Source: Escherichia coli
GTDB lineage: Bacteria; Pseudomonadota; Gammaproteobacteria; Enterobacterales; Enterobacteriaceae
Reading direction: 5' to 3' (one strand)
Assembly (NCBI RefSeq): GCF_030013595.1
Contig: NZ_CP122768.1
DNA length: 64,000 bases
The notes below the pieces were generated by a model that was given only the letters and a program-made list of their open reading frames with translations, made no database searches and was not told the origin of the DNA. Position 1 is the first letter of the stretch, and each line of letters begins with the position of its first letter. Of this stretch, positions 12,454-34,440 are shown piece by piece. The position numbers were made by a program, and so were the translations under genes.

Positions 12454-12567
<114 letters not shown>

Positions 12568-12609
12568 CCCTAATATAATGCCCCCACAATAACACGAGGG
12601 GGTACAACA

Positions 12610-12996
12610 ATGTTCAATATCATGATTCGTAAATTTGGCGAGATGACTTTCGAGAAAGCTGGTGTTGCTCGTACCGAAGAAGAAGCAATGGCCTTAGTTC
12701 TGGTAGCACTGAGATCATCACCTGAGATTATCGACGCTGAATATGTAGCTGCTGAGGGTGAGATTAAAGAGATTAAAGCGGTGGCTAAGGAATTAGGTGT
12801 TAAAGGTTTCCGTAAGCTGAGATTGAATCGTGAGACTTATGTAATTGGACAGCAAGGACAATACCTAGATGAGAATACCGTGATTGTTCTACTGAATAAG
12901 ATTACCCGCTACGGTTGGAAGATTGAGCAATATAAAACGTGTTTCGAATTATACGAAAAAGGTTTGCTGGATACTCTGACCATCGTTCGCGCTTAA
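12610..12996 (+). CDS. hypothetical protein (prophage attL-proximal)
   Basis: 128 aa ORF with RBS GAGGGGG upstream; no recognisable family. Confidence 0.5.
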   Translation: MFNIMIRKFGEMTFEKAGVARTEEEAMALVLVALRSSPEIIDAEYVAAEGEIKEIKAVAKELGVKGFRKLRLNRETYVIGQQGQYLDENTVIVLLNKITRYGWKIEQYKTCFELYEKGLLDTLTIVRA

Positions 12997-13304
12997 TTAA
13001 TTTCTAATTTGGTGGGTGTAATTCCCACCGCTTTTTAAACTGGAGAATCAAACATGTTAGCTTTTATCTCATTCGTGGGAGGTAGTCTCACAACTATGAT
13101 TAGTCTTTCTTATCTTGTCGTTAGTATGGGGTGAGCAATGAAACAATTTCATGATGGCATTTCATCTAAGACATTCAAGAAAGAATATAGCGGATTGTGT
13201 ATTAACTGGATTGATTTGATTGGTGCGGTTGTGTTTGGTCTGGTAATTAGCATCAATTTTTAACGATATAAATATATCGTAATTCATTCAAAGAGGATTC
13301 AATT

Positions 13305-13646
13305 ATGAAAAAGACTATCTACGCAATTATTGTTTCTGTGTGTGTTGGTGGCATCGGTGGATTTGTTTGTGGGTATGACTATTCCGATACTCAACATCAA
13401 GAGACTATCCGGTCAAATAAGGCCGAGATTAAGGATCTGAATCAGGAGATTAGCCAGTTAGAAAATGCTCTCTCACTCAAAGACAGTGAATATAGCGAGG
13501 TTTATGCAGATAAACAAAAATATTGGAAAGAGAAAGATAATCTCGTTGTTTACGGGATGAAATTGTGTAAGAGCATGAAGGACGAGCGCAGTTGTTTAAT
13601 GGAACTTGCCCTTAAAGGTAACGTGACCATCGACTTCAAAGACTAA
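13305..13646 (+). CDS. membrane-anchored coiled-coil protein (moron-like)
   Basis: 113 aa; N-terminal hydrophobic anchor IYAIIVSVCVGGIGGFVCG then coiled-coil; RBS AAGAGGATTC. Confidence 0.5.
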   Translation: MKKTIYAIIVSVCVGGIGGFVCGYDYSDTQHQETIRSNKAEIKDLNQEISQLENALSLKDSEYSEVYADKQKYWKEKDNLVVYGMKLCKSMKDERSCLMELALKGNVTIDFKD

Positions 13647-13675
13647 TTAATTCAAATAACAAAGAGGATTCTATT

Positions 13676-13921
13676 ATGAAAAAGATTATCGCTGGTATCG
13701 TTCTTGCTCTGGGTTTGGTTGGTGCTGCAAATGCCGAACAATATGTACAGGGTGATAGTGTCAAGCGTGCTGCCGTTGCACCTTCTTTAAATCAACTGTG
13801 TACTGAATTAGCACAGGTTGCCGGAGTTGGTGACGATGACGACTTTATTACTGCGTGTGTGTGGAGTCATATCGAGGATATTAATAAACGTGATGCAAAA
13901 CTAACTGGAAAGAAATATTAA
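13676..13921 (+). CDS. small secreted protein (moron-like)
   Basis: 81 aa; Sec signal peptide MKKIIAGIVLALGLVGAANA with AxA cleavage site; two Cys in mature part; RBS nearly identical to that of the preceding gene. Confidence 0.55.
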   Translation: MKKIIAGIVLALGLVGAANAEQYVQGDSVKRAAVAPSLNQLCTELAQVAGVGDDDDFITACVWSHIEDINKRDAKLTGKKY

Positions 13922-13971
13922 TGACTTACTAACCAATGCCCCTATCGTTATAATACACGGTAGGGGCGTTT

Positions 13972-15666
13972 TTGTTTGGAAATGGTATGAAAACTAAACT
14001 ATATTCGTATATTCGCTTCTCGTCTATGCGTCAGAATGATGGTTCGAGTTATGAACGGCAAATCAGGATGGCGAGAGAGGTTGCGGCAAAGTATGACCTT
14101 GAACTGGTAAATGATTATCAGGATCTGGGTGTATCTGCGTTTAAGGGTGCTAACTCTAAAACAGGGGCGCTATCTCGTTTCCTTGATGCAATTGGTAGAT
14201 CCGTTCCTGTTGGTAGCTGGCTATTCATTGAAAACTTGGACCGCTTATCCCGTGCCGATATTGTCAGTGCGCAGGAGTTATTCCTTTCAATCATCCGTAG
14301 GGGAATAACCATTGTTACTGGCATGGATAACAAGATCTACTCGCTGGATACTGTTACCGCTAATCCGATGGACCTGATGTTCTCCATCCTTCTATTCATC
14401 CGTGGTAATGAGGAAAGTCAGACTAAGCGCAATCGTACTAACTCAAGCGCATTGATTAAGATTAAAGCTCATCAAGAAAATCCCCAGAATCCGGCAGTGG
14501 CAATCGAGGAAGTTGGAAAGAATATGTGGTGGACTGATACCACATCTGGTTATGTGCTTCCTCATCCGGTCTTCTTCCCTATTGTTCAGGAAGTTGTGGA
14601 ATTACGCAGGAATGGACGGTCAACCGCCGAGATACTGGATCACCTTAACGCGACATACACACCACCACCAGCCGCAAGTCACAAGAGGCATTCAAACTGG
14701 TCACGGGCAATGATTGAAAGGTTGTTCCATACCCGCGCTTTGATTGGTATCAAGGAAATCTCTGTAGATGGCGTTAAGTATGAGTTAAAGGATTATTATC
14801 CTCGTGTGCTAGATGACGCTGAGTTTTATCACCTTAAGAAAAGCATTGGTGTTAGAGCATGTAACTATGGAGACAAGGAAGAAGTTAAACCGATCCCCCT
14901 GCTTAGTGGTGTTAATCTGCTGAAATGTGATCATTGCGGTTCCGCTATGGTTAAGGTGAAAGGAACAAACAGACGGCCTAACCAATATCGTTATTCATGC
15001 GATGCAATGCGCTCTAGTCGTATTGAATGTGTGCATACAAACTGGAGTTTTCGCGGCGACCAATTAGAGAAAGCTGTATTGCAATTGCTGGCTGATAAAA
15101 TCTGGATTGCTGAAGATAAGGCTAATCCGGTTCCGGCTTTGAAAGTACAGATTGATGAAATATCACGCAAGATTGATAACCTGATTGCCCTTTCTGCTAT
15201 GACAGGAGCAACGAAGGAGCTAGCCGATCAGATTACTACCCTCAATAGCGAGCGTGAAACACTCTACAATCAGATCAAGATGGCAGAAGAGGAAATGTAT
15301 TCTGTGGACTCTCAAGGCTGGGAGAAGCTCGCAGAATTTGATTTAGAAGATGTTTACAACGAGGATCGCATTAAGGTCCGGTTTAAGATTAAGCAAGCTC
15401 TAAAACGGATCGGGTGTAGCAGGATTGACAAGTACAAAAACTTGTTTGTACTGGAATACATCGATGGCAAGACCCAGAGAGTTGTAATAGAAAATTCAAG
15501 AGGACCGAGGAAAGGCCGGATCTTCGTTGATTTGAAGACTATCAATGATAGGCAGATTCTGGAGAGTAACGGGCTTGTTCTGCATCCATGTTTAGACATG
15601 CTGACAGATAAGAACTGGAAACCAGAAGAGGAAATACCAGGTCCATTACAGGAATTTGGAATTTAA
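13972..15666 (+). CDS. large serine recombinase (putative prophage integrase)
   Basis: 564 aa; resolvase-type catalytic motif YIRFSSMRQ at N-terminus, Cys-rich zinc-ribbon segment CDHCGS...YRYSCDAMRSSRIEC and coiled-coil, typical of large serine integrases. Confidence 0.8.
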   Translation: MFGNGMKTKLYSYIRFSSMRQNDGSSYERQIRMAREVAAKYDLELVNDYQDLGVSAFKGANSKTGALSRFLDAIGRSVPVGSWLFIENLDRLSRADIVSAQELFLSIIRRGITIVTGMDNKIYSLDTVTANPMDLMFSILLFIRGNEESQTKRNRTNSSALIKIKAHQENPQNPAVAIEEVGKNMWWTDTTSGYVLPHPVFFPIVQEVVELRRNGRSTAEILDHLNATYTPPPAASHKRHSNWSRAMIERLFHTRALIGIKEISVDGVKYELKDYYPRVLDDAEFYHLKKSIGVRACNYGDKEEVKPIPLLSGVNLLKCDHCGSAMVKVKGTNRRPNQYRYSCDAMRSSRIECVHTNWSFRGDQLEKAVLQLLADKIWIAEDKANPVPALKVQIDEISRKIDNLIALSAMTGATKELADQITTLNSERETLYNQIKMAEEEMYSVDSQGWEKLAEFDLEDVYNEDRIKVRFKIKQALKRIGCSRIDKYKNLFVLEYIDGKTQRVVIENSRGPRKGRIFVDLKTINDRQILESNGLVLHPCLDMLTDKNWKPEEEIPGPLQEFGI

Positions 15667-15942
15667 GCGGCCTAAATCGACGTATAACGAGCTAAAACAG
15701 TTAAGGGGTACAGATGTACCCCTTTTTAATTTAATTGCGTTAGGCAGCGTAAGCAAGTTTCATAGTAGTTTCCTCTAAAATAATAAGTTCACTACTATTT
15801 ATCAGAGAAAATTGTCTTACTATTGCATTCTCTATCTGGATGTGGGTATAGGCGGGATTGAATACGGCAAAACTGAAACATTCCACTACTGCAATAAATC
15901 ACTAAACAATATAAAGAATATTGCAAGTGTGGAGTGGAACTA

Positions 15943-16254
15943 ATGCAAGATATTAAAATTCATTTTCAAGATTACAGTTTCGTTAAGGTTGATTGCTCTC
16001 CTTCTATCGGAATGGAATTAAGAGATTATTTCTCGTTTGAGGTTGAAGGGGCTAGGTTTAGCCCCCGTTACAAGTATTCTGGCTGGGATGGACGAATAAG
16101 ACTGTTTACGCATGAAAACACCCTACCAATTGGACTATTAAAAACGTTGGGTGTCTTCGTTAAAAATATGGGCTATTCAGTCTGGATTGACCCCAGATTG
16201 CTTGAGAAGGAAGATGTAACCAAAGACGCGATTAATGAATGGATTGATTCCTTA
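15943..16254 (+). pseudogene. UvsW-like SF2 helicase, N-terminal fragment (interrupted by IS1)
   Basis: MQDIKIHFQDYSFVKVDC... runs in frame into the IS1 left end; the frame continues on the other side of IS1. Confidence 0.7.
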
Positions 16255-16309
16255 GGTGATGCTGCCAACTTACTGATTTAGTGTATGATGGTGTTTTTGA
16301 GGTGCTCCA

Positions 16310-16585
16310 GTGGCTTCTGTTTCTATCAGCTGTCCCTCCTGTTCAGCTACTGACGGGGTGGTGCGTAACGGCAAAAGCACCGCCGGACATCAGCGCTATC
16401 TCTGCTCTCACTGCCGTAAAACATGGCAACTACAGTTCACTTACGCCGCCTCTCAGCCCGGTACGCACCAGAAAATCATTGATATGGCCATGAATGGCGT
16501 CGGATGTCGCGCCAGTGCACGCATTATTGGCGTTGGCCTCAACACGATTTTCCGCCACTTAAAAAACTCAGGCCGCAGTCGGTAA
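16310..16585 (+). CDS. insA: IS1 InsA
   Basis: 91 aa [43 protein letters not shown]..., zinc finger plus HTH. Confidence 0.9.
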
Positions 16586-17007
16586 CCTCGCGCATACAAC
16601 CGGGCAGTGATGTGATTGTCTGCGCTGAAATGGACGAACAGTGGGGCTACGTCGGTGCTAAATCACGTCAGCGCTGGCTGTTTTACGCGTATGACAGGAT
16701 GCGGAGGACGGTTGTGGCGCACGTCTTCGGTGAACGCACTCTGGCCACACTGGAGCGTCTTCTGAGCCTGCTGTCGGCCTTTGAGGTCGTGGTATGGATG
16801 ACGGATGGCTGGCCGCTGTATGAATCACGCCTGAAGGGAAAGCTGCACGTTATCAGCAAGCGTTATACTCAGCGCATTGAGCGGCATAACCTGAATCTGA
16901 GACAACATCTGGCAAGGCTGGGACGGAAGTCACTGTCGTTCTCAAAATCGGTGGAGCTGCATGACAAGGTCATCGGGCATTATCTGAACATAAAACACTA
17001 TCAGTAA
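16504..17007 (+). CDS. insB: IS1 InsB reading frame (expressed as InsAB' by -1 frameshift)
   Basis: 167 aa frame overlapping insA 3' end; DDE transposase core. Confidence 0.85.
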
Positions 17008-17022
17008 GTTGGAGTCATTACC

Positions 17023-18210
17023 GATTCCTTAGAAGTGTATTCCGGTAGCAATAAAATCAATCCTTATTGGTATCAAAGGGAGGCAGTCTTTCAGGGTATC
17101 CACAATCGCCGTAGAATGCTGGTTCTTCCTACCAGTGCCGGAAAGTCATTGATTGCTTGTATGCTGTCTCGTTGGTACTTAGAGAACTACACCGGAAAAG
17201 TGTTAATCATTGTTCCGACTACATCGCTAGTGGTTCAAATGAGGGATGATTTCATCGATTATAGGCTATTCCCTTATGAAGCAATTCATACAATGATGAG
17301 TGGTAGCGGGAAACATCCGGGAGACAGGTTAATCACGGTTAGTACCTGGCAATCAGCTTGCAAGATGCCTCCTGAATGGTTCCGACAATATGGAATGTTG
17401 ATAGTTGATGAATCGCATAAGGCTAGTGCCAAAAATATTACCAATATCATCAATGGAATGAATCATTGCCAATTTAAGATCGGCATGACTGGTTCCCCGA
17501 AAGAATCAAAGTGCCATTTAATGCAGTATGTCGGGCTTTTCGGTGATATTTCTAAGATCGTGAGTATTGACCGCCTGATGGAAGAAGGGCAGGTGACAAA
17601 ACTGAAAATTAACTGTCTTTTCCTTCGTTATACAGATGAGGAATGTAGCGCGGTTAAGGGGCGAGAATATGCGGAAGAGATCAAGTATATTACGTCTAAC
17701 CCACGACGAAATAAGTTTGCTTGTAATTTGGCGCTAAAACTAGCTAAGAAGGGCGAAAACGTATTCCTGATGTTCCGCAATACTAAGCACGGAAAACTTA
17801 TGTATGATGCGTTACAGAAGGTACACGACAAGGTTTATTATATTGACGGTGGAGTTAAGACAGAAGAACGTGATGAATTTAAGAAAATGGCGGAGGGTGA
17901 CACCGGGATCATTTGCGTTGCATCCTATGGTGTGTTCTCTACTGGTGTTTCAATTAAGAATTTGCATCATGTTATTTTCGGTCATCCAGTGAAGGAATCA
18001 ACTATCGTTCGTCAGAGTATCGGTCGTGCATTGCGTAAACATGGTTCTAAGGATATTGCAACGGTCTGGGATCTTATAGATCATCTGTGTATATTCGGTC
18101 GTAACGGAAAAGTCAAGCATAAAAATTATGCGGTAAAACATGCACTTGAGAGAATCCGCTATTATCTAACCGACAAGTTCAGCTATGCAACTAAAACAAT
18201 TGCTATATAA
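17023..18210 (+). pseudogene. UvsW-like SF2 helicase, C-terminal fragment
   Basis: Walker A LVLPTSAGKSL, DExH box IVDESHKA, helicase C-terminal motifs VASYGVFSTGVSIKNLHHVIFG and GRALRKHGSKDIATVWDL; in frame with the N-fragment across the IS1 target duplication. Confidence 0.7.
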
Positions 18211-18211
18211 C

Positions 18212-18240
18212 AAAAAAGCGCCCACTAGAGGCGCTTTAAT
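18212..18240. terminator. bidirectional rho-independent terminator between convergent helicase and lysis/structural operons
   Basis: stem AGCGCC/GGCGCT with 7-nt loop, A-run upstream and T-rich tract downstream. Confidence 0.45.
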
Positions 18241-18241
18241 T

Positions 18242-18595
18242 TTATCCATTCCATCGTGATTTTTTCGATCTGGAATCGATATGCGTAAAGGTTTTATATT
18301 TGCCTAAGCCGTATTGAGTAGGATATTTCCCATCAAGATAAGCATGGACAATATCAGGGGAGACACCCTTGATCACAATGTCAGCCGCACGGCCTCGAAC
18401 GTGATAGCTGTTGGTTGCACCGCCTACATTCTTGTTATGAGTCGGGCAACGGTTGCCACTGTTAATAATCACTGGTTTACCGAAGTGCTCTCGTACATCC
18501 TCAAGAATTACCAGTAATTCAGCGTCGATTGTATCATAATCACATTTTCCGCATTTACATTTAAATTCCTTGCGAGAAAAATGCTTACTTAACAT
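18242..18595 (-). CDS. endolysin, peptidase M15 family (L-alanyl-D-glutamate peptidase type)
   Basis: 117 aa; zinc-binding signature SYHVRGRAADI ... FTHID typical of VanY/M15 phage endolysins. Confidence 0.75.
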   Translation of the reverse strand: MLSKHFSRKEFKCKCGKCDYDTIDAELLVILEDVREHFGKPVIINSGNRCPTHNKNVGGATNSYHVRGRAADIVIKGVSPDIVHAYLDGKYPTQYGLGKYKTFTHIDSRSKKSRWNG

Positions 18596-18604
18596 ATTAC
18601 CCCC

Positions 18605-18952
18605 TTAGATCATTTCGAAGATATAACCAATAAAGCGCATACCCTTGATATAATAAGGAGCAGTGCCTACACACACCGCGCGTGCATCGCCCAGACAGTT
18701 AAAGCTATAAGGATTAACTACATCGACTTCTTGCCCTACACGAAAACGATATTTAGGACGTTTAGCCAATGTAGCGACACAAAACACGGTCCCTTTTTCA
18801 TGATCGCGGATACATTCTTTATATTGTTTATGTTTAACTCTCTTCGCCTCAAAATCATGTGTCATGGATTCTGGGCTAATGCCATTGATAAAAATACCGG
18901 AAAGCTGGTCGACCGGATAAGTAGGAAATTCAGTAAAAATATTTTTAGCCAT
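18605..18952 (-). CDS. hypothetical protein (lysis cassette)
   Basis: 115 aa ORF tightly packed between endolysin and next gene. Confidence 0.45.
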   Translation of the reverse strand: MAKNIFTEFPTYPVDQLSGIFINGISPESMTHDFEAKRVKHKQYKECIRDHEKGTVFCVATLAKRPKYRFRVGQEVDVVNPYSFNCLGDARAVCVGTAPYYIKGMRFIGYIFEMI

Positions 18953-18990
18953 GTTATACCCCCATAAGATTCTATGAGGGTATTTATTGA

Positions 18991-19674
18991 TTAAACGTAT
19001 TTCATGCGCGATTTAATGTGCTTATTGATGTTTTCAAGCATCATTGCTTCGTTGCTTTCCCACGATCCTAGCGTCGAATAACGAGTAGAAATTTTATCCG
19101 ACTTAACGGCAACAATTCGCTTACTCTGTTTCTGTATGCGTTTCTCTAAGCGACGTTTTGCCACCGCCGATCCATTCTTAGCGCGTTTGGTTCGGGATTT
19201 CTTAGGCTTGTACTTCTTCATGATAAAAGTCCCTTCCTGGTTCTCTACCTTGATGAAGTTGCCATTTTCGATGTTACGCATCATCTTACCGCCTTTGATG
19301 GCCTTAATGTTCCCGTGGGCGTCTAAGACCTTACCGTTGGCAATTGGCACTAGCTTATTGATTTTGCCACCATCGAAATAGTGTTTCAGATAGTCATCCT
19401 GACTGCCGATCTTCTTGTCCTTATCCCTTGCGCCCTTGATGAAGATTTGGTGTCTCGTCCCTGAACGGTTCTTGTAGTTGGTATTACCTACAGCTTGTTG
19501 AGTCCAGCGAGTAGGTCTATCAACATTCTTGTTAATCTTCTTCTGGAGTGCTCTGGAAGCAAAGATCGCCCCTTCCCCTATCGCCTTTTCGAATGTATCG
19601 GTTGCTTTATCAGACCATTGGCGTAACGCTTTCTTAGTCCTTAGAGCGTTTCGTTTATTGGTACTGGTTGCCAT
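18991..19674 (-). CDS. hypothetical highly basic protein
   Basis: 227 aa, Lys/Arg-rich throughout. Confidence 0.45.
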   Translation of the reverse strand: MATSTNKRNALRTKKALRQWSDKATDTFEKAIGEGAIFASRALQKKINKNVDRPTRWTQQAVGNTNYKNRSGTRHQIFIKGARDKDKKIGSQDDYLKHYFDGGKINKLVPIANGKVLDAHGNIKAIKGGKMMRNIENGNFIKVENQEGTFIMKKYKPKKSRTKRAKNGSAVAKRRLEKRIQKQSKRIVAVKSDKISTRYSTLGSWESNEAMMLENINKHIKSRMKYV

Positions 19675-19675
19675 G

Positions 19676-19846
19676 TTAGCCCCCTAATAACGAAAAGACC
19701 CCCGCCAGTGTCCTTAGCAATTGTTCATCCACGGTCATAGCCGGGAGTTCAAGCCCAAAGGACGTTAGCAGAGGTCTAATTGCTACGTTATAAGTGAGGG
19801 CGACAATCAAGAGATAACCAAAATATTTCTTAAGTTTATTCTTCAT
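19676..19846 (-). CDS. small transmembrane protein (holin/spanin-like candidate)
   Basis: ORF 19676..19918 trimmed to MKNKLKK...; hydrophobic segment YFGYLLIVALTYNVAI; start codon choice uncertain. Confidence 0.35.
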   Translation of the reverse strand: MKNKLKKYFGYLLIVALTYNVAIRPLLTSFGLELPAMTVDEQLLRTLAGVFSLLGG

Positions 19847-19865
19847 ATATTCACCCCTTTTATTA

Positions 19866-20144
19866 TTATTTTTGTCTGAGTAAATCGATAACTTGGTCAA
19901 ATTTAGCGTCCATCGCAACCACTTTCTTTTCTATACCGTGAAGGGTTTGTTCCATGCGATAAACTCTCTCGGCGATCTGGTCGTGGTTATTCTGCATTGT
20001 TTCAAACTTCTGATTAAACAATGCATCATTGGACTCTAATTTCGACAATCTATTTTCTGTGGCTAATTGATTTCGGTGAAGTCTCCATAATCCACCACAA
20101 ATTAAGGCGATAACACCGATACCGCCATATATAATTTCAGTCAT
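19866..20144 (-). CDS. membrane-anchored coiled-coil protein (holin or i-spanin candidate)
   Basis: 92 aa; N-terminal TM IIYGGIGVIALICGGLW followed by coiled-coil. Confidence 0.4.
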   Translation of the reverse strand: MTEIIYGGIGVIALICGGLWRLHRNQLATENRLSKLESNDALFNQKFETMQNNHDQIAERVYRMEQTLHGIEKKVVAMDAKFDQVIDLLRQK

Positions 20145-20249
20145 TACGCCCCCGATATTTTTATATAGTTTAATGGCAAAATTATTTAGATAAAAATAAT
20201 CCCGCCTAACTCAAAAGAATTAAGCGGGATTTATTATTAAAATTAAATT

Positions 20250-23200
20250 TTAAGAAACAGTAATACCGGTAGTTGCTTTTTTAGTTACCATTACCGTTAA
20301 ATCACTGATCCATGTGCTAGGCGTCCAGTTGTTGATTGCGCTTGATTGCACTTCAAAGGTCAAGGTCACAGCACCCTTACCCGCTGGCATATCAATAACA
20401 CCTGAGTAAAGACCAGTATTACCGCCATACGCCCTATTATACAACTCTGACCCATTCTTACGAACAATCAGGCGACAGGTGTCGTAATAGGTATTATTGT
20501 TCGACCCTTCACGCGCTCGCAATCCACCAAAACTAACAGCCGGAATAACGATTTGACGATCGAACTTGTGATCATCTTCAACGCGAACAGTGACCGTACC
20601 TTGTGGATAGCCAGCATAACCATTATCAACGTTAACATCACGATGCGGGAACTTACGTCCAATCACCTTAACGAAATCACCCTTAACCTGAGTAGCTTCA
20701 AGCATACCCTTAATAACACAGCTAGAGTTAATCGTGACGTTGTTCAGAGTACCAGAATCGGCAGTGATATTACCTTTAACGGTTGCATTCATGAACGTAG
20801 CGGACCCGTTCTTGTTGATATGCCATCCGGTAGATCCGTTCCAGTCGGAAGACTGGATATAGTTACCAATTTTAGCGTTATCAATTGCGCCATTTACAAT
20901 CTTGGCGTTGGTGATCGCGCCGTCTTGGATTTTCGCTGAATTGATCGCAGCATTGCCAATTTTAGCCGTGGTGATACTAGCATCAGTAATCTGTGCTGAT
21001 CCGATTGAGGCATTACGAATCATGGCACTGTCGAGATAAACCTTGTTACCTTCGATACCAAACGGGCATACTTCCGATCCGTTCTGTGGAGCTACCGCGA
21101 TTTTATCAGCATTAAAGATGATTCTCGTCGGTTGCGCCGGATCGTTGGTTGCGCTCATGTGAATACCAGCCACGCGACCATCTGCATTAACTGCCAGATT
21201 ATATTTGCTGTTAATGGTTCCTTTCAAAGCATCGATTTTTACATCTGCTTCCTGATTCACGCCAGCAATCTTGCCATCCATTTCTACCCGAACTTGATCA
21301 ATCTTGCTTGCGCTTGCTGCCTCACTGGTAGCAATTGCTTGTTTCAGGGTAGTAGCAGATGCGCTGACTTCGGATTTAATATCGCCTTTCAGTTCAGCTT
21401 TAACCTGATCAATCTTAGTGGAGCTAGCTTGCTCGCTGGTAGCAATCAGACTCTTTAAGGTATTGGCTGAGGCTTGGACCGTCTGCCCTGTTTCGGTAGT
21501 GATTTGCTTATGCATTGCATCAATTTTAGCATCGGCATTAGCGCCAGCTTGAGCAATAGCATCCGCGATAGTTTCATCTAAGCGGTCTTGTAAACCAATC
21601 AGGTCTTCCAGTGCTTCTTTGTCCTGATCGTCCCAGCTAATTGTAGATCTCATTTGCATGAAATAAGGTTCAGACCAAACAGCATCATCCATACCGAAAA
21701 TATCGTAGTGAGCACCACGGATATAATAATCACCGTCAGCAATATCAAAGGAAGTATGGCTAACACTATTCGTGCTTACTGCCCTTGCATCGGAGAAAGT
21801 GTTATCGGTTGCATACTGGATGATTGACCCTGCATAATCATGTTCTACGTCATCTGCCCAGCTAACAAACACACTATTAAAGCCACCACGCGCACTAAAA
21901 CCTTTCATTGGCTTATGTTGTGGGTTGATAGCCACTAAACGCGCTGGGGCGCTCTCTGAGTTGTTATAGCCCTTAGCCGATACTTCTACCGTCAGTTGAC
22001 GCGAAAGGCCGTTAAACTGGTTCATATCAAGCGTATAAGTCCATGATTCAGGATCGCGGGTACGGTACTGAATAGACTTACCAGCCTTGTTAGTCACCTT
22101 GATAATGTATGCTTCAAACAGGTCACTAAACTTGTTAGTTTCACCGTTGATCTCAACATCTAATTGTTGCTGATTTTCCCATTCGATAATCAGATCATTA
22201 CCTTCGAAAGTTCCTGGCGTGCTACCCTGATTTTTGATTCGAATAACCGGAGTCGGCAATTCATAGGTAACAGTCGGATTCTGGTTAATCAGTTCTACCC
22301 ACTCGGAACGAGCAATAATACCGAAAGCACAAACTCGGTAATCATAAGAGCGATCTTTCGCCAGTGCATTGACACTGAAAATTTGCTGTGAAGTCTGTCC
22401 CAGCTTAATCCAGTTAGGCGATCCGCTTACACGGTAATCAATCTGGAAACCATAACGGTTAAAATCTTCCGGTGCATCCCATGTCAAAGTAACGTTTTTA
22501 CCGTAAATCGTCTCACCAGTTGCCTTAATCCTGAAATTAGTAGGCTTCTGTACTGTCATTGAATCCGGTAAACCACTTGGTCTATTGTCTGGAGTTGCCG
22601 CATAGTTCAGGTCAGTATAAACCTGAGAATTATATTCTGTGGCGGTGATAGTCATCATCCCAGCAATACCAGAATCAATCGAGCGATCAATTGCAGTAAT
22701 ACGCCATAAGGAATTATTCAGCTTCAATTCATCATAGGTTACGCTGATAACGTCCCAAACTTCGGCAGTGAATGCGTCAGTAGTCATAAAGCTGATAACC
22801 TGAGTGATACGAGATTTATTTCGCTCAATGCTCGCGAGTTTATCAATCTGATCTTTAGACTTAACAAAACGATATTCAATATCTTTAGCGATAATTCGAC
22901 CATCTTGACGAATAGTAGCATCGTTTTCAGCATCAGCCGGATAACGTAGCATTTGCTCTGAATAGTCAATTGATGGTTCTTGATACATCGCGTTAATGGT
23001 ATTGAAATAACCGTTAGTGCCACCTGTTTTCAGTGATACCTTACCCATCATGATATTGTCTTCATTGAAGGTATGCTTAACAATATCAGGAGCATCCAGT
23101 TTCAGCGTAATACGTCCAAAGGATTCGAACATCACCCCGCCGAAAGTCTGCATAAGATTAGTCAAGTTCTCTTTAAAGCTGGCGTTCGGATCACATGCAC

Positions 23201-24026
23201 CGTTTGAATGTAGATCCATCTGGCGTACTTGTTTACGTACTTTCAGGAATGAATCAACGTTAATGTTTTCAATTGGTACAGATAAGCCATATTTTTCATT
23301 TGTTAGGTAGTGGAAAATCTGGTCCACGCCGTTAGTGCTAGCCTCAATAGCATTAGTTTCAAGGTTACGAATCTTTAAGCCCATAACATCGACTGCTACC
23401 TGGCTATTTGGCTGGAGAATATCAACACCAGCAGCAAGAGATTTGTCATCACGACGTAACACAATACACATGGTTGCAATACCATTGCCTTTGTAGTTGT
23501 CGTTCCAGTCTGATCCTAAATGACGTTTTGCCAGTGACAAAGCGGTGTTAGGATTCTTACCCGTGCGAAACTCAACTTCTAAAACTTTCCGGTATTCTTC
23601 TTTAATGTTGCCTTTGTCCAGTACACCATCACGGATCGTCATGTTCTTACCAACAAGAACATTTTTGTTATCGATAAACAGTGCTTTGTAATGGTCGATT
23701 TCACCCTCGGCAATTGCGAAGATTTGCACTAACTTATTGTTTTCTTGCTTAGAAATTGCTTTGTAAACGCAGATTGCACCCGTGCGGGTAGTACCAAAAA
23801 GAACGGGTAATACTGTCTTCGGATCGTTTGATGTTCCTAGTGTCACCGCATTATCTGGGCTTTGTACTTTCGGTGTTTTTGGTGCGCCTACAGTGGAAGC
23901 GATCAAGGTCATTGCACCAGCAGCCATACCGATAGCGACTGCGGTCATAACCGAAAATGTTGCGGCTGCCGCCATCCCCGCCGAAGCACCAGCAATAACC
24001 GCGCCTACCAATACTTCAAATCCCAT
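20250..24026 (-). CDS. central tail fiber / host-specificity (J-like) protein
   Basis: 1258 aa; hydrophobic N-terminus, large beta-rich body and C-terminal Ser/Thr-rich fiber region; positioned after the distal tail genes. Confidence 0.65.
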   Translation of the reverse strand: MGFEVLVGAVIAGASAGMAAAATFSVMTAVAIGMAAGAMTLIASTVGAPKTPKVQSPDNAVTLGTSNDPKTVLPVLFGTTRTGAICVYKAISKQENNKLVQIFAIAEGEIDHYKALFIDNKNVLVGKNMTIRDGVLDKGNIKEEYRKVLEVEFRTGKNPNTALSLAKRHLGSDWNDNYKGNGIATMCIVLRRDDKSLAAGVDILQPNSQVAVDVMGLKIRNLETNAIEASTNGVDQIFHYLTNEKYGLSVPIENINVDSFLKVRKQVRQMDLHSNGACDPNASFKENLTNLMQTFGGVMFESFGRITLKLDAPDIVKHTFNEDNIMMGKVSLKTGGTNGYFNTINAMYQEPSIDYSEQMLRYPADAENDATIRQDGRIIAKDIEYRFVKSKDQIDKLASIERNKSRITQVISFMTTDAFTAEVWDVISVTYDELKLNNSLWRITAIDRSIDSGIAGMMTITATEYNSQVYTDLNYAATPDNRPSGLPDSMTVQKPTNFRIKATGETIYGKNVTLTWDAPEDFNRYGFQIDYRVSGSPNWIKLGQTSQQIFSVNALAKDRSYDYRVCAFGIIARSEWVELINQNPTVTYELPTPVIRIKNQGSTPGTFEGNDLIIEWENQQQLDVEINGETNKFSDLFEAYIIKVTNKAGKSIQYRTRDPESWTYTLDMNQFNGLSRQLTVEVSAKGYNNSESAPARLVAINPQHKPMKGFSARGGFNSVFVSWADDVEHDYAGSIIQYATDNTFSDARAVSTNSVSHTSFDIADGDYYIRGAHYDIFGMDDAVWSEPYFMQMRSTISWDDQDKEALEDLIGLQDRLDETIADAIAQAGANADAKIDAMHKQITTETGQTVQASANTLKSLIATSEQASSTKIDQVKAELKGDIKSEVSASATTLKQAIATSEAASASKIDQVRVEMDGKIAGVNQEADVKIDALKGTINSKYNLAVNADGRVAGIHMSATNDPAQPTRIIFNADKIAVAPQNGSEVCPFGIEGNKVYLDSAMIRNASIGSAQITDASITTAKIGNAAINSAKIQDGAITNAKIVNGAIDNAKIGNYIQSSDWNGSTGWHINKNGSATFMNATVKGNITADSGTLNNVTINSSCVIKGMLEATQVKGDFVKVIGRKFPHRDVNVDNGYAGYPQGTVTVRVEDDHKFDRQIVIPAVSFGGLRAREGSNNNTYYDTCRLIVRKNGSELYNRAYGGNTGLYSGVIDMPAGKGAVTLTFEVQSSAINNWTPSTWISDLTVMVTKKATTGITVS

Positions 24027-24445
24027 TATTCACCCCCGAATCTATAAACTTGTTCATAGTCAATGTCTGAAACAGGAATGGTCATCCAGATACCATCTTC
24101 TTCAACGAGGCCATAACCGGAATAATGAGGAACTACGGAATAATAATTACGGTTTCCTAATTTGTGGGCTGTGACCAGTAAGTCGCCGTCCTGTAAATCA
24201 TCAGTGACTAATTTGAAATGTTTCTTAATTGGTTGAAGGATATTTGAATACCCGCTTAATTCTTTGCAGATTTTCAAACCTTCTTCTTTAGTTGAATATT
24301 TTTTATAAAGAGAATTATATAGGTCAGTACCAGCGAGAATATCGATGATCTTACATGCAATTAGATTGCAATCATTCTCACCCTGAACGAACTCCTGACC
24401 TATTAAAGAATTGATGTAATCGGTGATAAGCCTAGTTTTTAGCAT
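24026..24445 (-). CDS. tail assembly protein (I/K-like candidate)
   Basis: ORF 24026..24601 trimmed to the internal ATG with GGAGG RBS (MLKTRL...) to remove overlap with the upstream gene. Confidence 0.4.
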   Translation of the reverse strand: MLKTRLITDYINSLIGQEFVQGENDCNLIACKIIDILAGTDLYNSLYKKYSTKEEGLKICKELSGYSNILQPIKKHFKLVTDDLQDGDLLVTAHKLGNRNYYSVVPHYSGYGLVEEDGIWMTIPVSDIDYEQVYRFGGE

Positions 24446-24491
24446 GTTGAATACCTCCATGCTGTTATTTACTAGGCTTAGGGAGAAGGGA

Positions 24492-25145
24492 TTATTTCTT
24501 CGATGAATGCCACTTGCTTTCGCTATTCCACTTCCCGGCTCGGGAGAAGAATAGATCGTTCTCGTTTCCGGCATAGGAACGGTGGATACCATCGGAGGCA
24601 TGACTACGAGCGTTTTTATCTAGAACTTCCCAGATACTATTAAGCTGAAATTCTGATTCGTTTTTACACTCATCATCTTCATGTTCGATGTTAATCCCGA
24701 TGGAATCGACTACCCCACGGAAAACAGGGTAAGTAGTTTCAACCTTGCCCGTGTTGGGGTTAAGGAAAACCATCTCGATTTTCACATCAGATTTATCGAA
24801 TTGCTTGTTTCGAATTAGGGTAATGTATTCTTCGCGAACGTTAGAAACGGTTACGTTAATCCCGTTGTTGTTGATCTCCTTCTCTTCGGTATTCGATGAG
24901 ATTTGAAGAAAATCACCCGTTGCGAGATACGTAAATCCGTTATAGTCCAAATCGAAATACCCATCTGTAAGCCGTAGAACGTCCCCTGACGCTGTTATCA
25001 CTTCGATAATGTGAAACATCGATCCAGTGGAAAAAAGCTGCGGTAGCGTCAATCTAGACACGTTCTGACCTGTCTGGTCGTTGTAGACCTCGATGAAGTC
25101 CAGATTAGTGCATAGTTTGCTGAATGATTCTTGAATAGTTGCCAT
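24492..25145 (-). CDS. minor tail protein
   Basis: 217 aa, start abuts stop of the upstream gene, tail module context. Confidence 0.45.
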   Translation of the reverse strand: MATIQESFSKLCTNLDFIEVYNDQTGQNVSRLTLPQLFSTGSMFHIIEVITASGDVLRLTDGYFDLDYNGFTYLATGDFLQISSNTEEKEINNNGINVTVSNVREEYITLIRNKQFDKSDVKIEMVFLNPNTGKVETTYPVFRGVVDSIGINIEHEDDECKNESEFQLNSIWEVLDKNARSHASDGIHRSYAGNENDLFFSRAGKWNSESKWHSSKK

Positions 25146-25720
25146 TATACATTCTCCACTAATTCAAATTTCATCTTGCCAATCTGGGCGATCTTCCAAT
25201 CGATATTTTCAGTTTTGAGAACAAATTCACCTTCTACGTTTTGATACTTGATCACCTCACCCGCCAGGACGTTTTGACGCAAGTTAGGGAAGAGTTTCAT
25301 TTCACCACCTGATTTCACGTCTTCGGTGATCGTGTAGATTTTCTTGTGGTTCTCAAACTGGATGATAGTTCCTGCTTTCAGTGTTCCGGTGAAGTTGGAG
25401 AGTCTCACCTTACGCCCACCGCGAGCAGTACCAGCAGCAGCCGTTACCATCTGGCGTACATCACCTGTATATTTTGAAAAGTAAGACAGTGGCACATTGA
25501 AAGGACGACCAAAAAGGTGACGTGCTACAAATTCTTTTACTTCGTTAATATCCTGAGCCATGTAATTCGCGGTAAATTCTGCTTCGTAAAAATGGATGCC
25601 AGTAAAGCGACGCTGGAACTTACCAGAAATAGATTGCGCCTTAAAGAAAGGCTGTTTTGATTTAAGAGTAAAATCTGTGATTTTAATATTCTTGGATTTG
25701 AACATAGAAAAGCCCCCCAT
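25145..25720 (-). CDS. distal tail protein candidate
   Basis: 191 aa immediately downstream of the tape measure gene. Confidence 0.45.
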   Translation of the reverse strand: MGGFSMFKSKNIKITDFTLKSKQPFFKAQSISGKFQRRFTGIHFYEAEFTANYMAQDINEVKEFVARHLFGRPFNVPLSYFSKYTGDVRQMVTAAAGTARGGRKVRLSNFTGTLKAGTIIQFENHKKIYTITEDVKSGGEMKLFPNLRQNVLAGEVIKYQNVEGEFVLKTENIDWKIAQIGKMKFELVENV

Positions 25721-25756
25721 AGTTTTATGATTATTTATGACTATGGGGGCTTTTAA

Positions 25757-28111
25757 TTACATCTTACGGCGTTGTGCGTCTTCTACCGCCTGAGCAACTA
25801 ACTTAGCGTGACGTTTGATAGCATCCATGACCATCTTGTCTGAGCTATTAACGTTGCCGTTAATGTTCAAAGGCGCATTAACTTCAATCGGTTGAGAGTT
25901 GCCACCGCCTGATTTTTGAGCAGCAAGGAAGTCTTTCAAATCACCGTTAGTACGCTGATCAACTACTCGTTCACCCTTATCAAGCAACCATGTACCCTCA
26001 CGAGGGATGTTATCAATACCATCATGAGCCATACCGCTAACGTTAGTAGACTTGATGTTGGCGATGCTCCCCATGTTCTGAGAAACAGCCAATGCAGCAG
26101 CCGCGATTTTTTGACCTGTGGTTACGTTGGTCGGATCGTTCCATGCATCGGTAGCAGCCGTCCACATGTTCACCGTCGCTTGTCCAATAGAGAATGCTTT
26201 ATGAGCAGTGAAAGCCATCTGCATAGCTTTAGTGTTTTCCTGCCCGAAGAGAGTCATTGCAGCAGCAAAACCGCCATACATATCATCAGCTATTGACTGA
26301 CGAGCATCAGCATATTTCTTCTCAATTGCAGCCATTCGTTTTTGATGGTTTTCATTGAGTTTTTCTAATTCTTCCATCCGTTTAGCCGGATCGGTGATCC
26401 CATCAATCTTGATTTTACCGGTCTTATAATCTTGTTCCGCTTCCGATTTCTCTTTATCGATTGCATTAAATTTAGCAAACGGATCATTTGGATCTTGATA
26501 GTCTAAGCTATTGGTCAACTGATTGGTTTTAAAACCATCCATTCCATGCAAAGAATCTTCAATCTGTGAATAACTTTGCTCGGTATCATTCACACGACGC
26601 ATATATTCTTCGTAGGAGATAGCTTTACCATCAAGTAACCGTTTATGGCTTTCTAACTCGTTGTCCCTGATTTGTTGCAAAACTGTTAAGGCATTCAAAG
26701 CATCAACCGGATCAGCACCCAGCATCATTTTATAGATGTTTTCTGCGTTCTGGTCTAACAGTTGCTGACGTTTAGCGGCTGCGTCTTGCTGTGAGATTAA
26801 GCCCAGATCTAAAGCAGTGTCCAAATCTTTCAAGCTGGCTTCTAACTGCTTGTTTTGAGAAGCAATAGACGCGGCTGTCTGTCCTTGCAATTTAACATCA
26901 AGAGCATTCAGTCGCTTGATTGCATCCTCGCGTGCTTTCTGTGCTTTTTCTGCGGCTTCCTTAGCCTTTTTAGCTGCCTCTTCCGCTTTCTTCTTGGCTT
27001 CTTCTTGTTCTTTTTTTGTTGGACCAGTGACGCCTCCACCTTGACCCGTTGGGGTAAATCCAGTATCCGATTTATTTCCAGTGATAGTAATTACCGGATC
27101 GCCGTTTTTATCACGGGTAACTCCTTCACTATCCACCCAACGATCAGGATAATTTGGTTTATTGTTGAAGCTGGCTTGTCCACCTGCTAGACCAGTAGAA
27201 CTATAACCATGCTTGTTAATAAAACCACCGTTAGCCATAGCCATATTCTGGCGAGCTTTTTCAAACCTTTCATTAAACGTCTTTAATGCGTTGAATAAAG
27301 CGGTCTTTTCCCAATCTTTATCAAACCAGTTGTATAACTTGTTCATCCCTTCAACAACTGGATTTAGCGCATTTGCTGCCATACCCTTTAAGTTATCGGT
27401 AAGGGTATCCATATTTTTAGAGAATTTATTATATTCTTCGGCTGTATCATTGGTGATTTTAACAGTTTGCTGATTAATGGCGTTTACAGCTTCCTGATAA
27501 GATCCGTATTTCTGCAATTCATCAGCCATATGACTTGAATCACTGGCTAACGATTCCATCATAAACTTAACATCAGCGATAGACGCACCAGCCTTGCGCA
27601 TATCATAGAAGACCTTGATTGCCGCTTTCATCCCGCCTTGTGGATCGTTCATAAACTCGGCATAATCTTTAATCTTCAAACCTACACTTTCTAGGTCGTC
27701 TTCAATACCGCCACCGTTACGCCATGCATCAGCCAGTTTATCTAAGGTGTCTTTGTTAATATCACCAAATTTCTCAACGGTTAAGCCAGTGCCAGAGAAT
27801 TGCTTCTCTAATTTCTGGAGTGTTTCGACGGTTAAACCAGTTGCTTTTGAAACTTCGCTGTATTCCTTTACATAATCACCGATGGCATTTGCAGCAGAGA
27901 CAGCACCAGCAGCCAGACCAACAAAACCACCAGCAGCCAAAGCAAGCGATCCACCAGTTCCGCGAAGGGTTCCACTTAAACTAGATAAACCACCAGACAA
28001 ATCAAGATTCATTGCCCTTTCTGAAAGGTTATCAAGCATGTCAATCGCTTGGTTGGTACTTCTCCTTAGACCGTCGTTATTCCCTTCTATTGTTACTATA
28101 TGTCTTGTCAT
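25757..28111 (-). CDS. tail tape measure protein
   Basis: 784 aa, long alpha-helical/coiled-coil regions, Gly-rich segments, lysine/glutamate-rich stretch; canonical position after the chaperone pair. Confidence 0.75.
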   Translation of the reverse strand: MTRHIVTIEGNNDGLRRSTNQAIDMLDNLSERAMNLDLSGGLSSLSGTLRGTGGSLALAAGGFVGLAAGAVSAANAIGDYVKEYSEVSKATGLTVETLQKLEKQFSGTGLTVEKFGDINKDTLDKLADAWRNGGGIEDDLESVGLKIKDYAEFMNDPQGGMKAAIKVFYDMRKAGASIADVKFMMESLASDSSHMADELQKYGSYQEAVNAINQQTVKITNDTAEEYNKFSKNMDTLTDNLKGMAANALNPVVEGMNKLYNWFDKDWEKTALFNALKTFNERFEKARQNMAMANGGFINKHGYSSTGLAGGQASFNNKPNYPDRWVDSEGVTRDKNGDPVITITGNKSDTGFTPTGQGGGVTGPTKKEQEEAKKKAEEAAKKAKEAAEKAQKAREDAIKRLNALDVKLQGQTAASIASQNKQLEASLKDLDTALDLGLISQQDAAAKRQQLLDQNAENIYKMMLGADPVDALNALTVLQQIRDNELESHKRLLDGKAISYEEYMRRVNDTEQSYSQIEDSLHGMDGFKTNQLTNSLDYQDPNDPFAKFNAIDKEKSEAEQDYKTGKIKIDGITDPAKRMEELEKLNENHQKRMAAIEKKYADARQSIADDMYGGFAAAMTLFGQENTKAMQMAFTAHKAFSIGQATVNMWTAATDAWNDPTNVTTGQKIAAAALAVSQNMGSIANIKSTNVSGMAHDGIDNIPREGTWLLDKGERVVDQRTNGDLKDFLAAQKSGGGNSQPIEVNAPLNINGNVNSSDKMVMDAIKRHAKLVAQAVEDAQRRKM

Positions 28112-28114
28112 AAA

Positions 28115-28465
28115 TTACCCCGTTTGTGCGCTTCTGAGTTTCTCAAGCAAAGATGGATCGAACATGTTCAGCATTGCCGCTTTACGTTCTTCTTCTTTCT
28201 TGCGTGCAATTTCTTCCAGTTCTTCTTTAGTTTTAAAGAGTTTTTCTTCTCTAATTAATTGGAATTGGCTAGGCTTGAGTTTGCGTGCAGTTTCGCGAGT
28301 CATTCCTTGTGACGTCATATACATGGAATATTGCAACATCGCATTCTGCATATCATGAAACGCGGGGCTTTGTGGTTCTAAGTAGGTGTCGAAAATGTAT
28401 AATTTCCAAAACAGAGTGATTGGCATATTATCCATTTCATCTTTACTAAGCCCCGATCGCATCAT
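28115..28465 (-). CDS. tail assembly chaperone, T-like ORF (probably expressed as frameshift fusion)
   Basis: 116 aa frame immediately upstream of the tape measure gene; its frame is open back to the stop of the preceding ORF. Confidence 0.5.
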   Translation of the reverse strand: MMRSGLSKDEMDNMPITLFWKLYIFDTYLEPQSPAFHDMQNAMLQYSMYMTSQGMTRETARKLKPSQFQLIREEKLFKTKEELEEIARKKEEERKAAMLNMFDPSLLEKLRSAQTG

Positions 28466-28494
28466 TTGCCGGAAATAGAAATTCAGAAGCGGGT

Positions 28495-28803
28495 TTACTT
28501 TACCTCGTTTTCAATTACTGCCGGATCTTGCATCAATGACGCTTGAGCAACCAAACCGATTAATTCACTACGGACGTTAGTATACAGTGCCTTAACTTGT
28601 TCCATAGATTCAAATACTGGTTTACCGTCTTCATCTTCAATACAACGAAGAATAGAACGTTCATCACGGTCTTCTTTATCAGTATTGAAAACATGTTCGT
28701 TAAATTCTTTTACTGACATAGGGCGAGCATAGAACGTGAATCCGCCGATGGTCAGAGATTCACGTTTCGGAGAAAGAGCTTTCAGCATTTCATTAATATT
28801 CAT
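28495..28803 (-). CDS. tail assembly chaperone, G-like ORF
   Basis: 102 aa; ends ...EVK with codons GTA AAG TAA where the -1 frame is open. Confidence 0.5.
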   Translation of the reverse strand: MNINEMLKALSPKRESLTIGGFTFYARPMSVKEFNEHVFNTDKEDRDERSILRCIEDEDGKPVFESMEQVKALYTNVRSELIGLVAQASLMQDPAVIENEVK

Positions 28804-28845
28804 TCTTGTTTCCTCTTAAGTTAATTCGATATGTTTATTTAGAAT

Positions 28846-29352
28846 TTAAGAGATTTTCAAAGTCTGCTTAGTGCCAGTCTTCTTAATGTTGGTAAGGAAA
28901 GCAGCCGGAGGATTGCTTAACCAGTAATAATGAAAACCACTTTGCATACTGTTATAAGGAACAGTGACAGCAGCACCACCCAAATTAACGGTTATATTCC
29001 CCGCTCTACCGTTCTGGAGATATACAGCCATAGTAGGAGTACCACCATTGAATTGACCAACGATAACGCCAATCAGACGCCCTACGCCCACGTTTTCGGG
29101 GTTCTCCATAGATCCTTTACCGCGCATGTCAGTTACTGGATAGTTTGAAGCAGTTACACCCCAGTTATTACCCAATGAAGTAGACCACGCAGCAGTAGCT
29201 ACAACCGTATCCATACCACGACCACACATCGCGCTCATATTACCAGGTACACCAACTTTTAACGCTTGCATAGCCTCACGCATCCATCTCTTGCCAGTTA
29301 CAGAAACAGCCGATGATCCGACCCAGCCGGGCTTATTAACGACATTTGCCAT
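28846..29352 (-). CDS. hypothetical tail protein
   Basis: 168 aa, RBS GGAG before the ATG, tail module context. Confidence 0.45.
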   Translation of the reverse strand: MANVVNKPGWVGSSAVSVTGKRWMREAMQALKVGVPGNMSAMCGRGMDTVVATAAWSTSLGNNWGVTASNYPVTDMRGKGSMENPENVGVGRLIGVIVGQFNGGTPTMAVYLQNGRAGNITVNLGGAAVTVPYNSMQSGFHYYWLSNPPAAFLTNIKKTGTKQTLKIS

Positions 29353-29365
29353 TTTTATTACTCCA

Positions 29366-29397
29366 ATAAAAAAGCCCCACCATTAAGGCAGGGCTTA
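29366..29397 (-). terminator. rho-independent terminator (copy 1 of a triplicated element)
   Basis: minus strand AAGCCCTGCC-TTAAT-GGTGGGGCTT followed by TTTTTT. Confidence 0.5.
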
Positions 29398-29403
29398 TAA
29401 TTA

Positions 29404-34431: not shown

Positions 34432-34440
34432 TATTACCCC

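Follow-up and report, generated by a model that had tools for sequence, protein, structure and literature searches.

Why would a prophage of Escherichia coli carry uvsW, a helicase gene listed among the core genes of T4-like viruses (PMC2993671), and what was lost when an insertion sequence (IS) split it? The locus that raises these questions lies at 15943..18210 of a 64,000-nt stretch of E. coli DNA (NCBI RefSeq assembly GCF_030013595.1, contig NZ_CP122768.1), the whole of which we call the window. An earlier reading of the letters without database searches (the sequence-only reading) had proposed that IS1 recently interrupted a UvsW-like gene of a prophage, that such a gene is unusual beside the integrase of a temperate phage, and that its loss may affect prophage replication or recombination. 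Our analysis upholds most of this picture and departs from its last element. With moderate confidence, we regard this uvsW as optional cargo that came from a Krischvirus-like phage and was killed by IS1, the intact form being an accessory gene for which a role in competition between phages is the favoured function.

The interrupting element is an intact IS1 of 768 bp (16255..17022, + strand), recognised by its sequence, terminal inverted repeats and open reading frames (ORFs). Comparison of its ends identified imperfect terminal inverted repeats of ~23 bp (GGTGATGCTGCCAACTTACTGAT and GGTAATGACTCCAACTTACTGAT), and it encodes insA (16310..16585, +) and insB' (16504..17007, +), which are joined by the A6C -1 frameshift site AAAAAAC (16561..16567, +); the NCBIfam model transpos_IS1, with a cut-off of 100 bits, scored insB' at 148 bits and insA alone at 86 bits. 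Perfect 9-bp repeats of GATTCCTTA flank the element, the left copy (16246..16254) forming codons 102-104 (D-S-L) of uvsW and the right copy occupying 17023..17031, and the flanking identity ends there on both sides. IS1 transposed into the prophage uvsW with its usual 9-bp duplication, entering between codons 104 and 105. Joining 15943..16254 to 17032..18210 yields 1491 nt in frame with a single stop, encoding 496 aa; this reconstruction is exact, since the public protein collection contains an identical 496-aa sequence. The sequence-only reading had described this arrangement, and each of its coordinates is borne out, as is its joining of the fragments into one gene. Only one IS1 copy occurs within the window; near-identical copies (99.5-100%) are found in many E. 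coli genomes, mostly porcine among the matches listed.

The insertion divides the protein between its domains. The 5' fragment (15943..16254, +; codons 1-104), delimited by sequence, Pfam and a public 112-aa product, encodes the complete UvsW_N wing domain and a linker, and its ORF reads eight codons (GDAANLLI) into IS1 before stopping at 16279-16281, giving the 112-aa product. The 3' fragment (17032..18210, +; codons 105-496 and the stop), delimited by its ORF, motifs and Pfam matches, encodes the complete superfamily 2 (SF2) helicase core, for which the sole remaining in-frame start is a GTG at 17035 that, judged by eye, lacks a ribosome-binding site. Since the N-terminal DNA-binding wing domain (residues 1-83) is cut from the entire ATPase core, the split allele is almost certainly inactive and is best regarded as null, in line with the probable inactivation first suggested. 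The insertion itself and its effect are textbook: the 768-bp length, the insA/insB' pair with its A6C site, the 9-bp duplication and the disrupted target ORF all match IS1 gene inactivation as known elsewhere, with nothing unusual, and represent ordinary prophage decay. Other IS events were seen in the same prophage family, namely IS1B in the portal/terminase region of UTME-12 (NZ_CP157095), IS1A in the recombinase gene of the relative HCP5S3_I4 (NZ_CM149869) and IS3 in the tail-fibre gene of the relative L3Cip3 (comparison locus L003, 26376-27604). IS-mediated decay is recurrent in these prophages.

Protein searches with the reconstructed ORF found helicase homology from end to end. phmmer aligned residues 3-494 with residues 2-500 of the T4 UvsW structure 2oca_A (E=6.8e-184, 52.7% identity), and Pfam UvsW_N (PF21241) matched residues 3-83 over its full length (model 1-81 of 81, E=4.1e-34), with further Pfam matches to ResIII, DEAD and Helicase_C. 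SF2 motifs I (PTSAGKS, residue 137), II (DESH, residue 230) and VI (QSIGRALR) are all intact in the reconstructed protein and present in all E. coli prophage alleles examined, and PHROGs assigns the protein to 'DNA helicase' families. Its closest phage relatives are the UvsW proteins of Krischvirus (RB49, Phi1, G5211 and pEJ01; 80-82% identity), with UvsW of other T4-like genera below 60%. By homology, the product is a genuine member of the UvsW family and not merely 'UvsW-like', so the earlier assignment to a UvsW-type SF2 helicase of roughly 500 aa is vindicated. The bland RefSeq name, 'DEAD/DEAH box helicase', arises because no UvsW model was found in NCBIfam.

T4 UvsW is made late in infection, unwinds origin R-loops and thereby turns off origin-dependent initiation, and also drives branch migration and fork regression (PMC3016281); when E. 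coli expresses it on its own, it acts as an R-loop helicase and removes R-loops (PMC5909445). The prophage protein shares with T4 UvsW (PDB 2OCA/1RIF; UvsW_N, ResIII and Helicase_C) full-length collinearity, the wing domain and SF2 motifs I, II and VI, a likeness from which we infer that the intact form carries out ATP-dependent unwinding of R-loops and branched DNA. Its setting, however, differs from that in T4. The prophage copy is optional, resides in a temperate siphophage-type genome and is here interrupted by IS1; the prophage shows no UvsX, gp32, gp46/47 or T4 replisome; and in the window uvsW has no uvsW.1 or uvsY neighbour and no exact T4 late promoter. The T4-late-promoter-like sequence TATAAAGA lies 27 nt before the ATG (the Phi1 counterpart is TATAAATA), is not conserved in the Salmonella alleles and was not used as support.

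Intact and interrupted forms of the gene differ sharply in occurrence. The identical intact 496-aa protein is present on at least 49 public contigs (labelled 'MULTISPECIES ... [Escherichia]'), and its 90%-identity protein cluster has 735 members. The split products, of 112 aa (WP_282870789) and 391 aa (WP_282870790), are found on no more than two contigs, of which one is a 5.58-Mb chromosome. Among 5,426 complete E. coli genomes, 16 carry uvsW (0.3%), all 16 as one uninterrupted coding sequence (CDS) of 1491-1494 nt, and none of these contains IS1. A widespread IS1 allele is ruled out by these counts, and the idea that the two fragments are separate genes by the single CDS in every IS1-free relative. 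Since the intact protein of identical sequence is common, and only two contigs have the split form, allele comparison marks the IS1 hop as recent, as the sequence-only reading had supposed, and private to this strain. Its remark that a prophage is an unusual place for uvsW was likewise fair, given the 16 genomes above and the lack of any description of a prophage UvsW in the literature found.

The gene lies in a prophage of ~35.9 kb (approximately 12560..48421) that is inserted in hicB next to ydcR and has the short repeat TTTAGGTTT at both junctions (12559 and 48413). Within this prophage, uvsW occupies a slot bordered on the left by the integrase gene, a large serine recombinase (13972..15666, +; phrog_95 integrase, E=1e-58), and on the right by an endolysin gene of the Peptidase_M15_3 / D-Ala-D-Ala carboxypeptidase type (18242..18595, -). 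Terminator-like hairpins follow the integrase gene (15703..15724, +) and separate the uvsW stop from the convergent endolysin gene (18215..18237, terminator-like on both strands); the stop is only 31 nt from the endolysin gene in the window, which leaves no space for uvsW.1 or uvsY.

Slot content varies widely across the family. The integrase and terminase/portal of these prophages occur in 54-56 of the 5,426 complete E. coli genomes, and only 16 of the ~55 family-bearing genomes carry uvsW; the remaining ~70% appear otherwise complete. The integrase-endolysin slot is empty in OkiPb01713 (L008) and holds a 65-aa ORF in DEC5A (L006), 332-aa and 146-aa ORFs in PigCaeca_2 and PE15 (L007 and L009), uvsW alone in CFSAN061761, ES2, UTAK-14 and the window, and, in about a dozen strains, uvsW together with a 391-aa nuclease-like gene and a 185-aa gene. 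The chromosomal uvsW genes of E. coli and Salmonella that diverge further (67-84% identity) all occupy the same slot of the same prophage family. For this temperate siphophage family of E. coli and Salmonella, which has not been characterised, uvsW is optional cargo and not a core gene. Absence from ~70% of family members also rules out a role as the prophage's core replication helicase. Since most members lack uvsW, the IS1 hit should not disable the prophage life cycle and would not be expected to harm the prophage much, and the proposed effect on prophage replication or recombination is unsupported: the slots without uvsW are empty or filled by other genes. The arrangement resembles the moron and defence hotspots of other prophages in being a variable, terminator-framed slot beside the integrase, between conserved genes and with alternative cargos, but differs from them in that no cargo gene fits a known PADLOC system and in that the cargo genes are otherwise typical of virulent T4-like phages.

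Sequence comparisons indicate how closely this cargo is connected to one such group. Gene nucleotides 802-1368 of the reconstructed uvsW are 98.2% identical to uvsW of Krischvirus Phi1 (557/567), against 66.9% for the remainder (Fisher p=2.7e-59). Similarity to pEJ01 begins at about gene nt 743, so that the tract is 570-630 bp long depending on the reference; it is matched by all 56 Krischvirus records, best by pEJ01 (97.8% over 630 nt). We place this recombinant tract of Krischvirus origin at 17462..18087 (+) on the basis of sliding-window identity and tree incongruence. Trees of three parts of the gene disagree with one another: 5' and 3' segment trees group the window-type alleles together, well apart from the Krischviruses, with the 5' segment near FDAARGOS_1267 (91%), and the tract tree nests the window-type alleles within the Krischvirus cluster. 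In FDAARGOS_1267 and the Salmonella alleles the tract is of a 'native' type with 71% identity, and the Krischviruses are uniformly 98-99% alike along uvsW. Because the discordance sits in the window-type alleles and the Krischviruses are uniform, the exchange ran from Krischvirus to prophage; transfer of the tract in the opposite direction was ruled out by the drop in window-type identity to FDAARGOS_1267 from 91% in the 5' flank to 71% in the tract. Taken as a set, identity profile and segment trees establish a recent recombination between a virulent Krischvirus and the uvsW of this prophage. Krischvirus uvsW (RB49/Phi1/pEJ01) is thus the closest phage homologue, with 98% nucleotide identity over the tract and a downstream gene order shared by prophage relatives, but is only ~67% identical outside the tract, where the first 740 nt and the last 120 nt fall in lineages specific to prophages.

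This exchange was probably not the only one. RMDEC332 has a different version of the tract (86-87% identical), the 3' ends are of yet another origin, and in Krischvirus G5211 (L017:1765-4003) the 5' ~1 kb of uvsW has been replaced, its identity to other Krischviruses being only 57-81%; these three differences suggest repeated exchange. Directly upstream of uvsW in G5211 (L017:1765-4003), and likewise in L026 (3304-5542), lies a gene for a SegE-like homing endonuclease of the GIY-YIG type. The G5211 pattern looks like co-conversion, and it marks uvsW as a recombination hotspot of lytic phages as well. Exchange with host DNA is plausible for these phages because Krischviruses lack cytosine modification and are able to transduce (PMC12115623).

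What surrounds uvsW in relatives points to the form in which it may have arrived. The Krischvirus reference order is uvsW, uvsW.1, uvsY.-2, uvsY, 25, 26, 51 and 27. Downstream of prophage uvsW, a full uvsY (73.5% identical to Phi1 UvsY) is present in L010 (9530-9940) and another, followed by a gp27' fragment, in L021 (6530-7268); FDAARGOS_1267 (L015:5651-5818) retains a 55-aa uvsY remnant that is 100% identical to Phi1 in amino acids and 88% in nucleotides, and L025 (5537-5966) has uvsW.1 and a uvsY.-2 fragment. These leftovers identify the cargo, by gene order, as the remainder of a collinear T4-type block of uvsW, uvsW.1, uvsY.-2, uvsY and gp27', and because they are collinear with the Krischvirus order, the block was probably captured as a single piece from a Krischvirus-like virulent phage. 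In the window lineage the block then decayed stepwise: the uvsY side went first, next the nuclease cassette described below, and finally uvsW was split by IS1. The helicase gene itself has fared differently from its neighbours: it is full length with intact motifs in alleles down to 67% amino acid identity, as adjacent T4-type genes decay, and Nei-Gojobori ratios of nonsynonymous to synonymous divergence (dN/dS) between prophage alleles are 0.04-0.18 (dS from 0.02 to saturation). These patterns suggest that intact uvsW is kept by selection as an accessory function.

Much of the slot's remaining content in relatives is nuclease-like. Upstream of uvsW there is typically a gene of 324-392 aa for a nuclease-like protein, on the opposite strand, and a gene of 186-194 aa that abuts or overlaps the uvsW start; the same architecture of nuclease, ~190-aa gene and uvsW was found in the further E. 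coli and Salmonella loci examined (L002, L010, L012, L015, L016 and L020-L025), exemplified by the cassette of a 391-aa nuclease-like gene and a 185-aa gene at L002:6040-7938. The 391-aa protein shows CapR homology (E=6e-5) and similarity to MUG113 of the GIY-YIG superfamily (E=1e-4), with a weak match to T5orf172; the 185-aa protein has a CapR-homology domain, and both match phrog_681, 'endonuclease' (E=3e-43 for the nuclease gene). A homologue of the 391-aa protein, the 332-aa protein mentioned above, occurs in slots without uvsW. The best phage homologues of the nuclease-like proteins (27-30% identity) are scattered in Krischvirus genomes, and in Krischviruses Whisky and JK32 the homologue is located between uvsW and uvsW.1; by BLASTP, the homing endonuclease of G5211 is not homologous to the prophage nuclease family.

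The window retains only the scar of this cassette, ~200 bp immediately upstream of uvsW (15740..15942, +), which was recognised by comparison with L002. Positions 15740-15844 correspond to the 5' end of the CapR/T5orf172-like nuclease gene and part of the relatives' divergent intergenic region, and 15836-15942 to the 3' end of their 185-aa ORF, which runs into the start of uvsW. The cassette was removed by two deletions in the window, CFSAN061761 and ES2, with ~9 bp of overlap at each junction.

The cassette has parallels in known systems. T5orf172 genes have been described as homing endonucleases of the free-standing kind, marking the boundaries of recombination in phages such as ICP1 (PMC10448857), and CapR is described as a domesticated endonuclease of the Vibrio PLE satellite that acts as an anti-phage regulator targeting a lytic phage (PMC8096241). 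The relatives' slot genes share CapR-homology and T5orf172/MUG113 domains with the homing endonucleases of T4-like phages and with CapR of PLE, which opposes ICP1; homologues lie beside uvsW in Krischvirus, surrounded by mosaic boundaries like those described for ICP1 (PMC10448857). Unlike PLE, the host here is a complete temperate phage and not a satellite, and the window has kept only the 200-bp scar. The nuclease-like and CapR-like genes are a candidate homing or interference cassette. Searches of PADLOC-DB 2.0 gave no specific match, or at most marginal ones, for the nuclease, the 185-aa protein or the alternative cargos, and only weak generic helicase matches for UvsW (best PbeA, 5.6e-12). 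A known anti-phage defence system was ruled out on this ground.

For the intact gene, then, we favour an autonomous branch and R-loop helicase with an accessory function, which would most likely be deployed, together with the adjacent CapR/T5orf172 nuclease-like proteins, against superinfecting T4-like phages. One route would be for pre-made UvsW to unwind the origin R-loops that a T4-like invader requires early. Competition is favoured because all components of the slot show Krischvirus affinities, because UvsY is without a partner in the prophage, because the location is a typical cargo slot, and because UvsW present before infection would strike an invader's origins at the wrong time. The case for this role is weak, and several points weigh against it. 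A scan upstream of uvsW found no consensus-level sigma-70 promoter, and no PADLOC defence model fits the nuclease or the ~185-aa protein, with generic helicase matches alone for UvsW. The cassette decays in several lineages, including that of the window, which argues against a strong or universal benefit, and the low dN/dS could in part be imported by recombination from lytic phages, in which uvsW is core. T4 is able to replicate by recombination-dependent initiation, and losing origin R-loops alone would at best delay such an invader.

Competition could also take a more specific shape, which we put forward tentatively and consider doubtful as it stands: the conserved cassette of CapR/T5orf172 nuclease-like gene, ~190-aa CapR-like gene and uvsW, with or without uvsY, may be an undescribed module of phage-phage conflict. 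A temperate phage would have captured Krischvirus-type replication and recombination genes and would express them at the wrong time for an invader, with UvsW unwinding the invader's origin R-loops, UvsY disturbing UvsX loading, and the proteins derived from homing endonucleases cutting or repressing the invader at the matching locus. The homology they share would at the same time give virulent and temperate phages a permanent route for gene exchange, and the window would represent a lineage in which the module has been dismantled, by deletion of the nuclease cassette first and by IS1 in uvsW second.

A rival account, essentially the idea of the sequence-only reading, is that UvsW serves the prophage itself, through RecG-like branch migration or fork regression after induction that boosts recombination-dependent replication and repair; IS1 would then lower burst or survival of DNA damage. 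The autonomy of UvsW in E. coli (PMC5909445; PMC3016281), the strong purifying selection on the gene and the lack of any other recognisable replication or recombination gene in the prophage are all compatible with this. The distribution of the gene speaks against it, however, with ~70% of family members apparently complete without uvsW, as do its position outside the early region, in a terminator-framed slot like those of morons, the retention of UvsY in some relatives whose prophage offers no UvsX or gp32 partner, and the affiliation of all slot neighbours with Krischvirus and not with a prophage replication module. We think it possible, though unlikely, that service to the prophage explains the gene. 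Mosaicism and homing-type genes suggest a different alternative, in which uvsW is a selfish passenger without function for prophage or host, a piece of flanking homology brought in and retained through gene conversion with Krischviruses that homing endonucleases drive, and IS1 is a neutral step in its decay. Genes of the homing-endonuclease type do adjoin uvsW in Krischviruses (G5211, Whisky, JK32 and L026) as well as in the prophage slot, and in each setting uvsW itself is mosaic. The T4-type genes around it are decaying, the nuclease cassette and most recently uvsW have been lost in the window, and T5orf172 nuclease genes are described as marking recombination boundaries in other phages (PMC10448857). 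A passenger would not be expected, though, to remain full length with intact motifs down to 67% amino acid identity as adjacent genes decay, or to show dN/dS of 0.04-0.18, intact alleles in 16 of 16 complete genomes and a 90%-identity cluster of 735 members, and we rate this reading as improbable.

A benefit to the bacterial host, by lysogenic conversion, seems to us very unlikely indeed. Under it, the helicase would clear R-loops from the genome or rescue stalled forks, and the IS1 insertion would have deprived the host of a mild benefit or relieved it of a cost. In E. coli, T4 UvsW supplied ectopically lowers R-loop levels and overcomes the lethality caused by rho and nusG deletions, and its effect on antisense transcription in the wild type is negligible (PMC5909445). 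Against this, RecG and RNase H are already present in E. coli, only 0.3% of genomes carry the gene, and a host benefit leaves the conserved linkage to nuclease-like and other T4-type genes unexplained. The preferred account of an accessory cargo used in competition between phages retains our moderate confidence.

The remainder of the prophage offers context for this account. It encodes a terminase, a portal, a 668-aa capsid protein, a tape measure, tail tip proteins and a T-even-type long tail fibre; a tail tube protein is present and no tail sheath was found in the prophage, so it is apparently a siphovirus. Protein annotation searches found no recognisable replication gene, UvsX or gp32 in it. 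The presumed early region (41400..48400) encodes an Ant/Rha-like and a TerS-like protein and otherwise only small ORFs of no assigned function, with no recognisable replication, repressor or recombination gene, and within 43785..45350 there is ~1.5 kb without any ORF of at least 90 aa, a gap that is similarly unannotated in relatives. Family members are inserted either in hicB next to ydcR (L002, L006 and L008) or in ycdX next to the csg operon (L001, L007 and L010), and the serine recombinases of the two groups are closely related (91-98% nucleotide identity).

Among isolated phages, no named relative of the prophage was found; the best terminase match was 43.7%, and the sole DNA match was gp37. 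The latter concerns the 1153-aa tail fibre (30059..33520, -), the distal ~890 residues of which are of the T-even gp37 type (phrog_1699, E=3e-148); its DNA is 83% identical to Krischvirus Phi1 gp37 over 2.7 kb. This second Krischvirus-related segment suggests that the prophage and Krischviruses share hosts or receptors. The same prophage encodes a 168-aa 'tail fiber adhesin' (phrog_1121; 28846..29352, -). Rfam and tRNA scans of the window gave nothing relevant: an ARAGORN call of a 91-nt tRNA-Gln(ttg) at 34586..34676 (+) lies inside and antisense to a 156-aa prophage ORF (34441..34911), had no Rfam match at the gathering threshold, and is probably a false positive.

Among the papers listed that mention both UvsW and prophages, none describes UvsW in a temperate phage or prophage, and the maintenance of UvsW in a temperate phage, its linkage to CapR/T5orf172-type genes and its ongoing recombination with Krischviruses appear to be undescribed. 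In this setting, a core gene of virulent T4-like phages travels as optional cargo of a temperate phage, where purifying selection maintains it with its usual partners missing. Its 98%-identical tract is direct sequence evidence that a strictly virulent genus used in phage therapy has recombined recently with a resident prophage. The split allele here and the identical intact allele elsewhere form a ready-made natural comparison, and if the cassette does act against T4-like phages, it would represent a new kind of prophage-encoded interference, built from the replication genes of the target phage itself.

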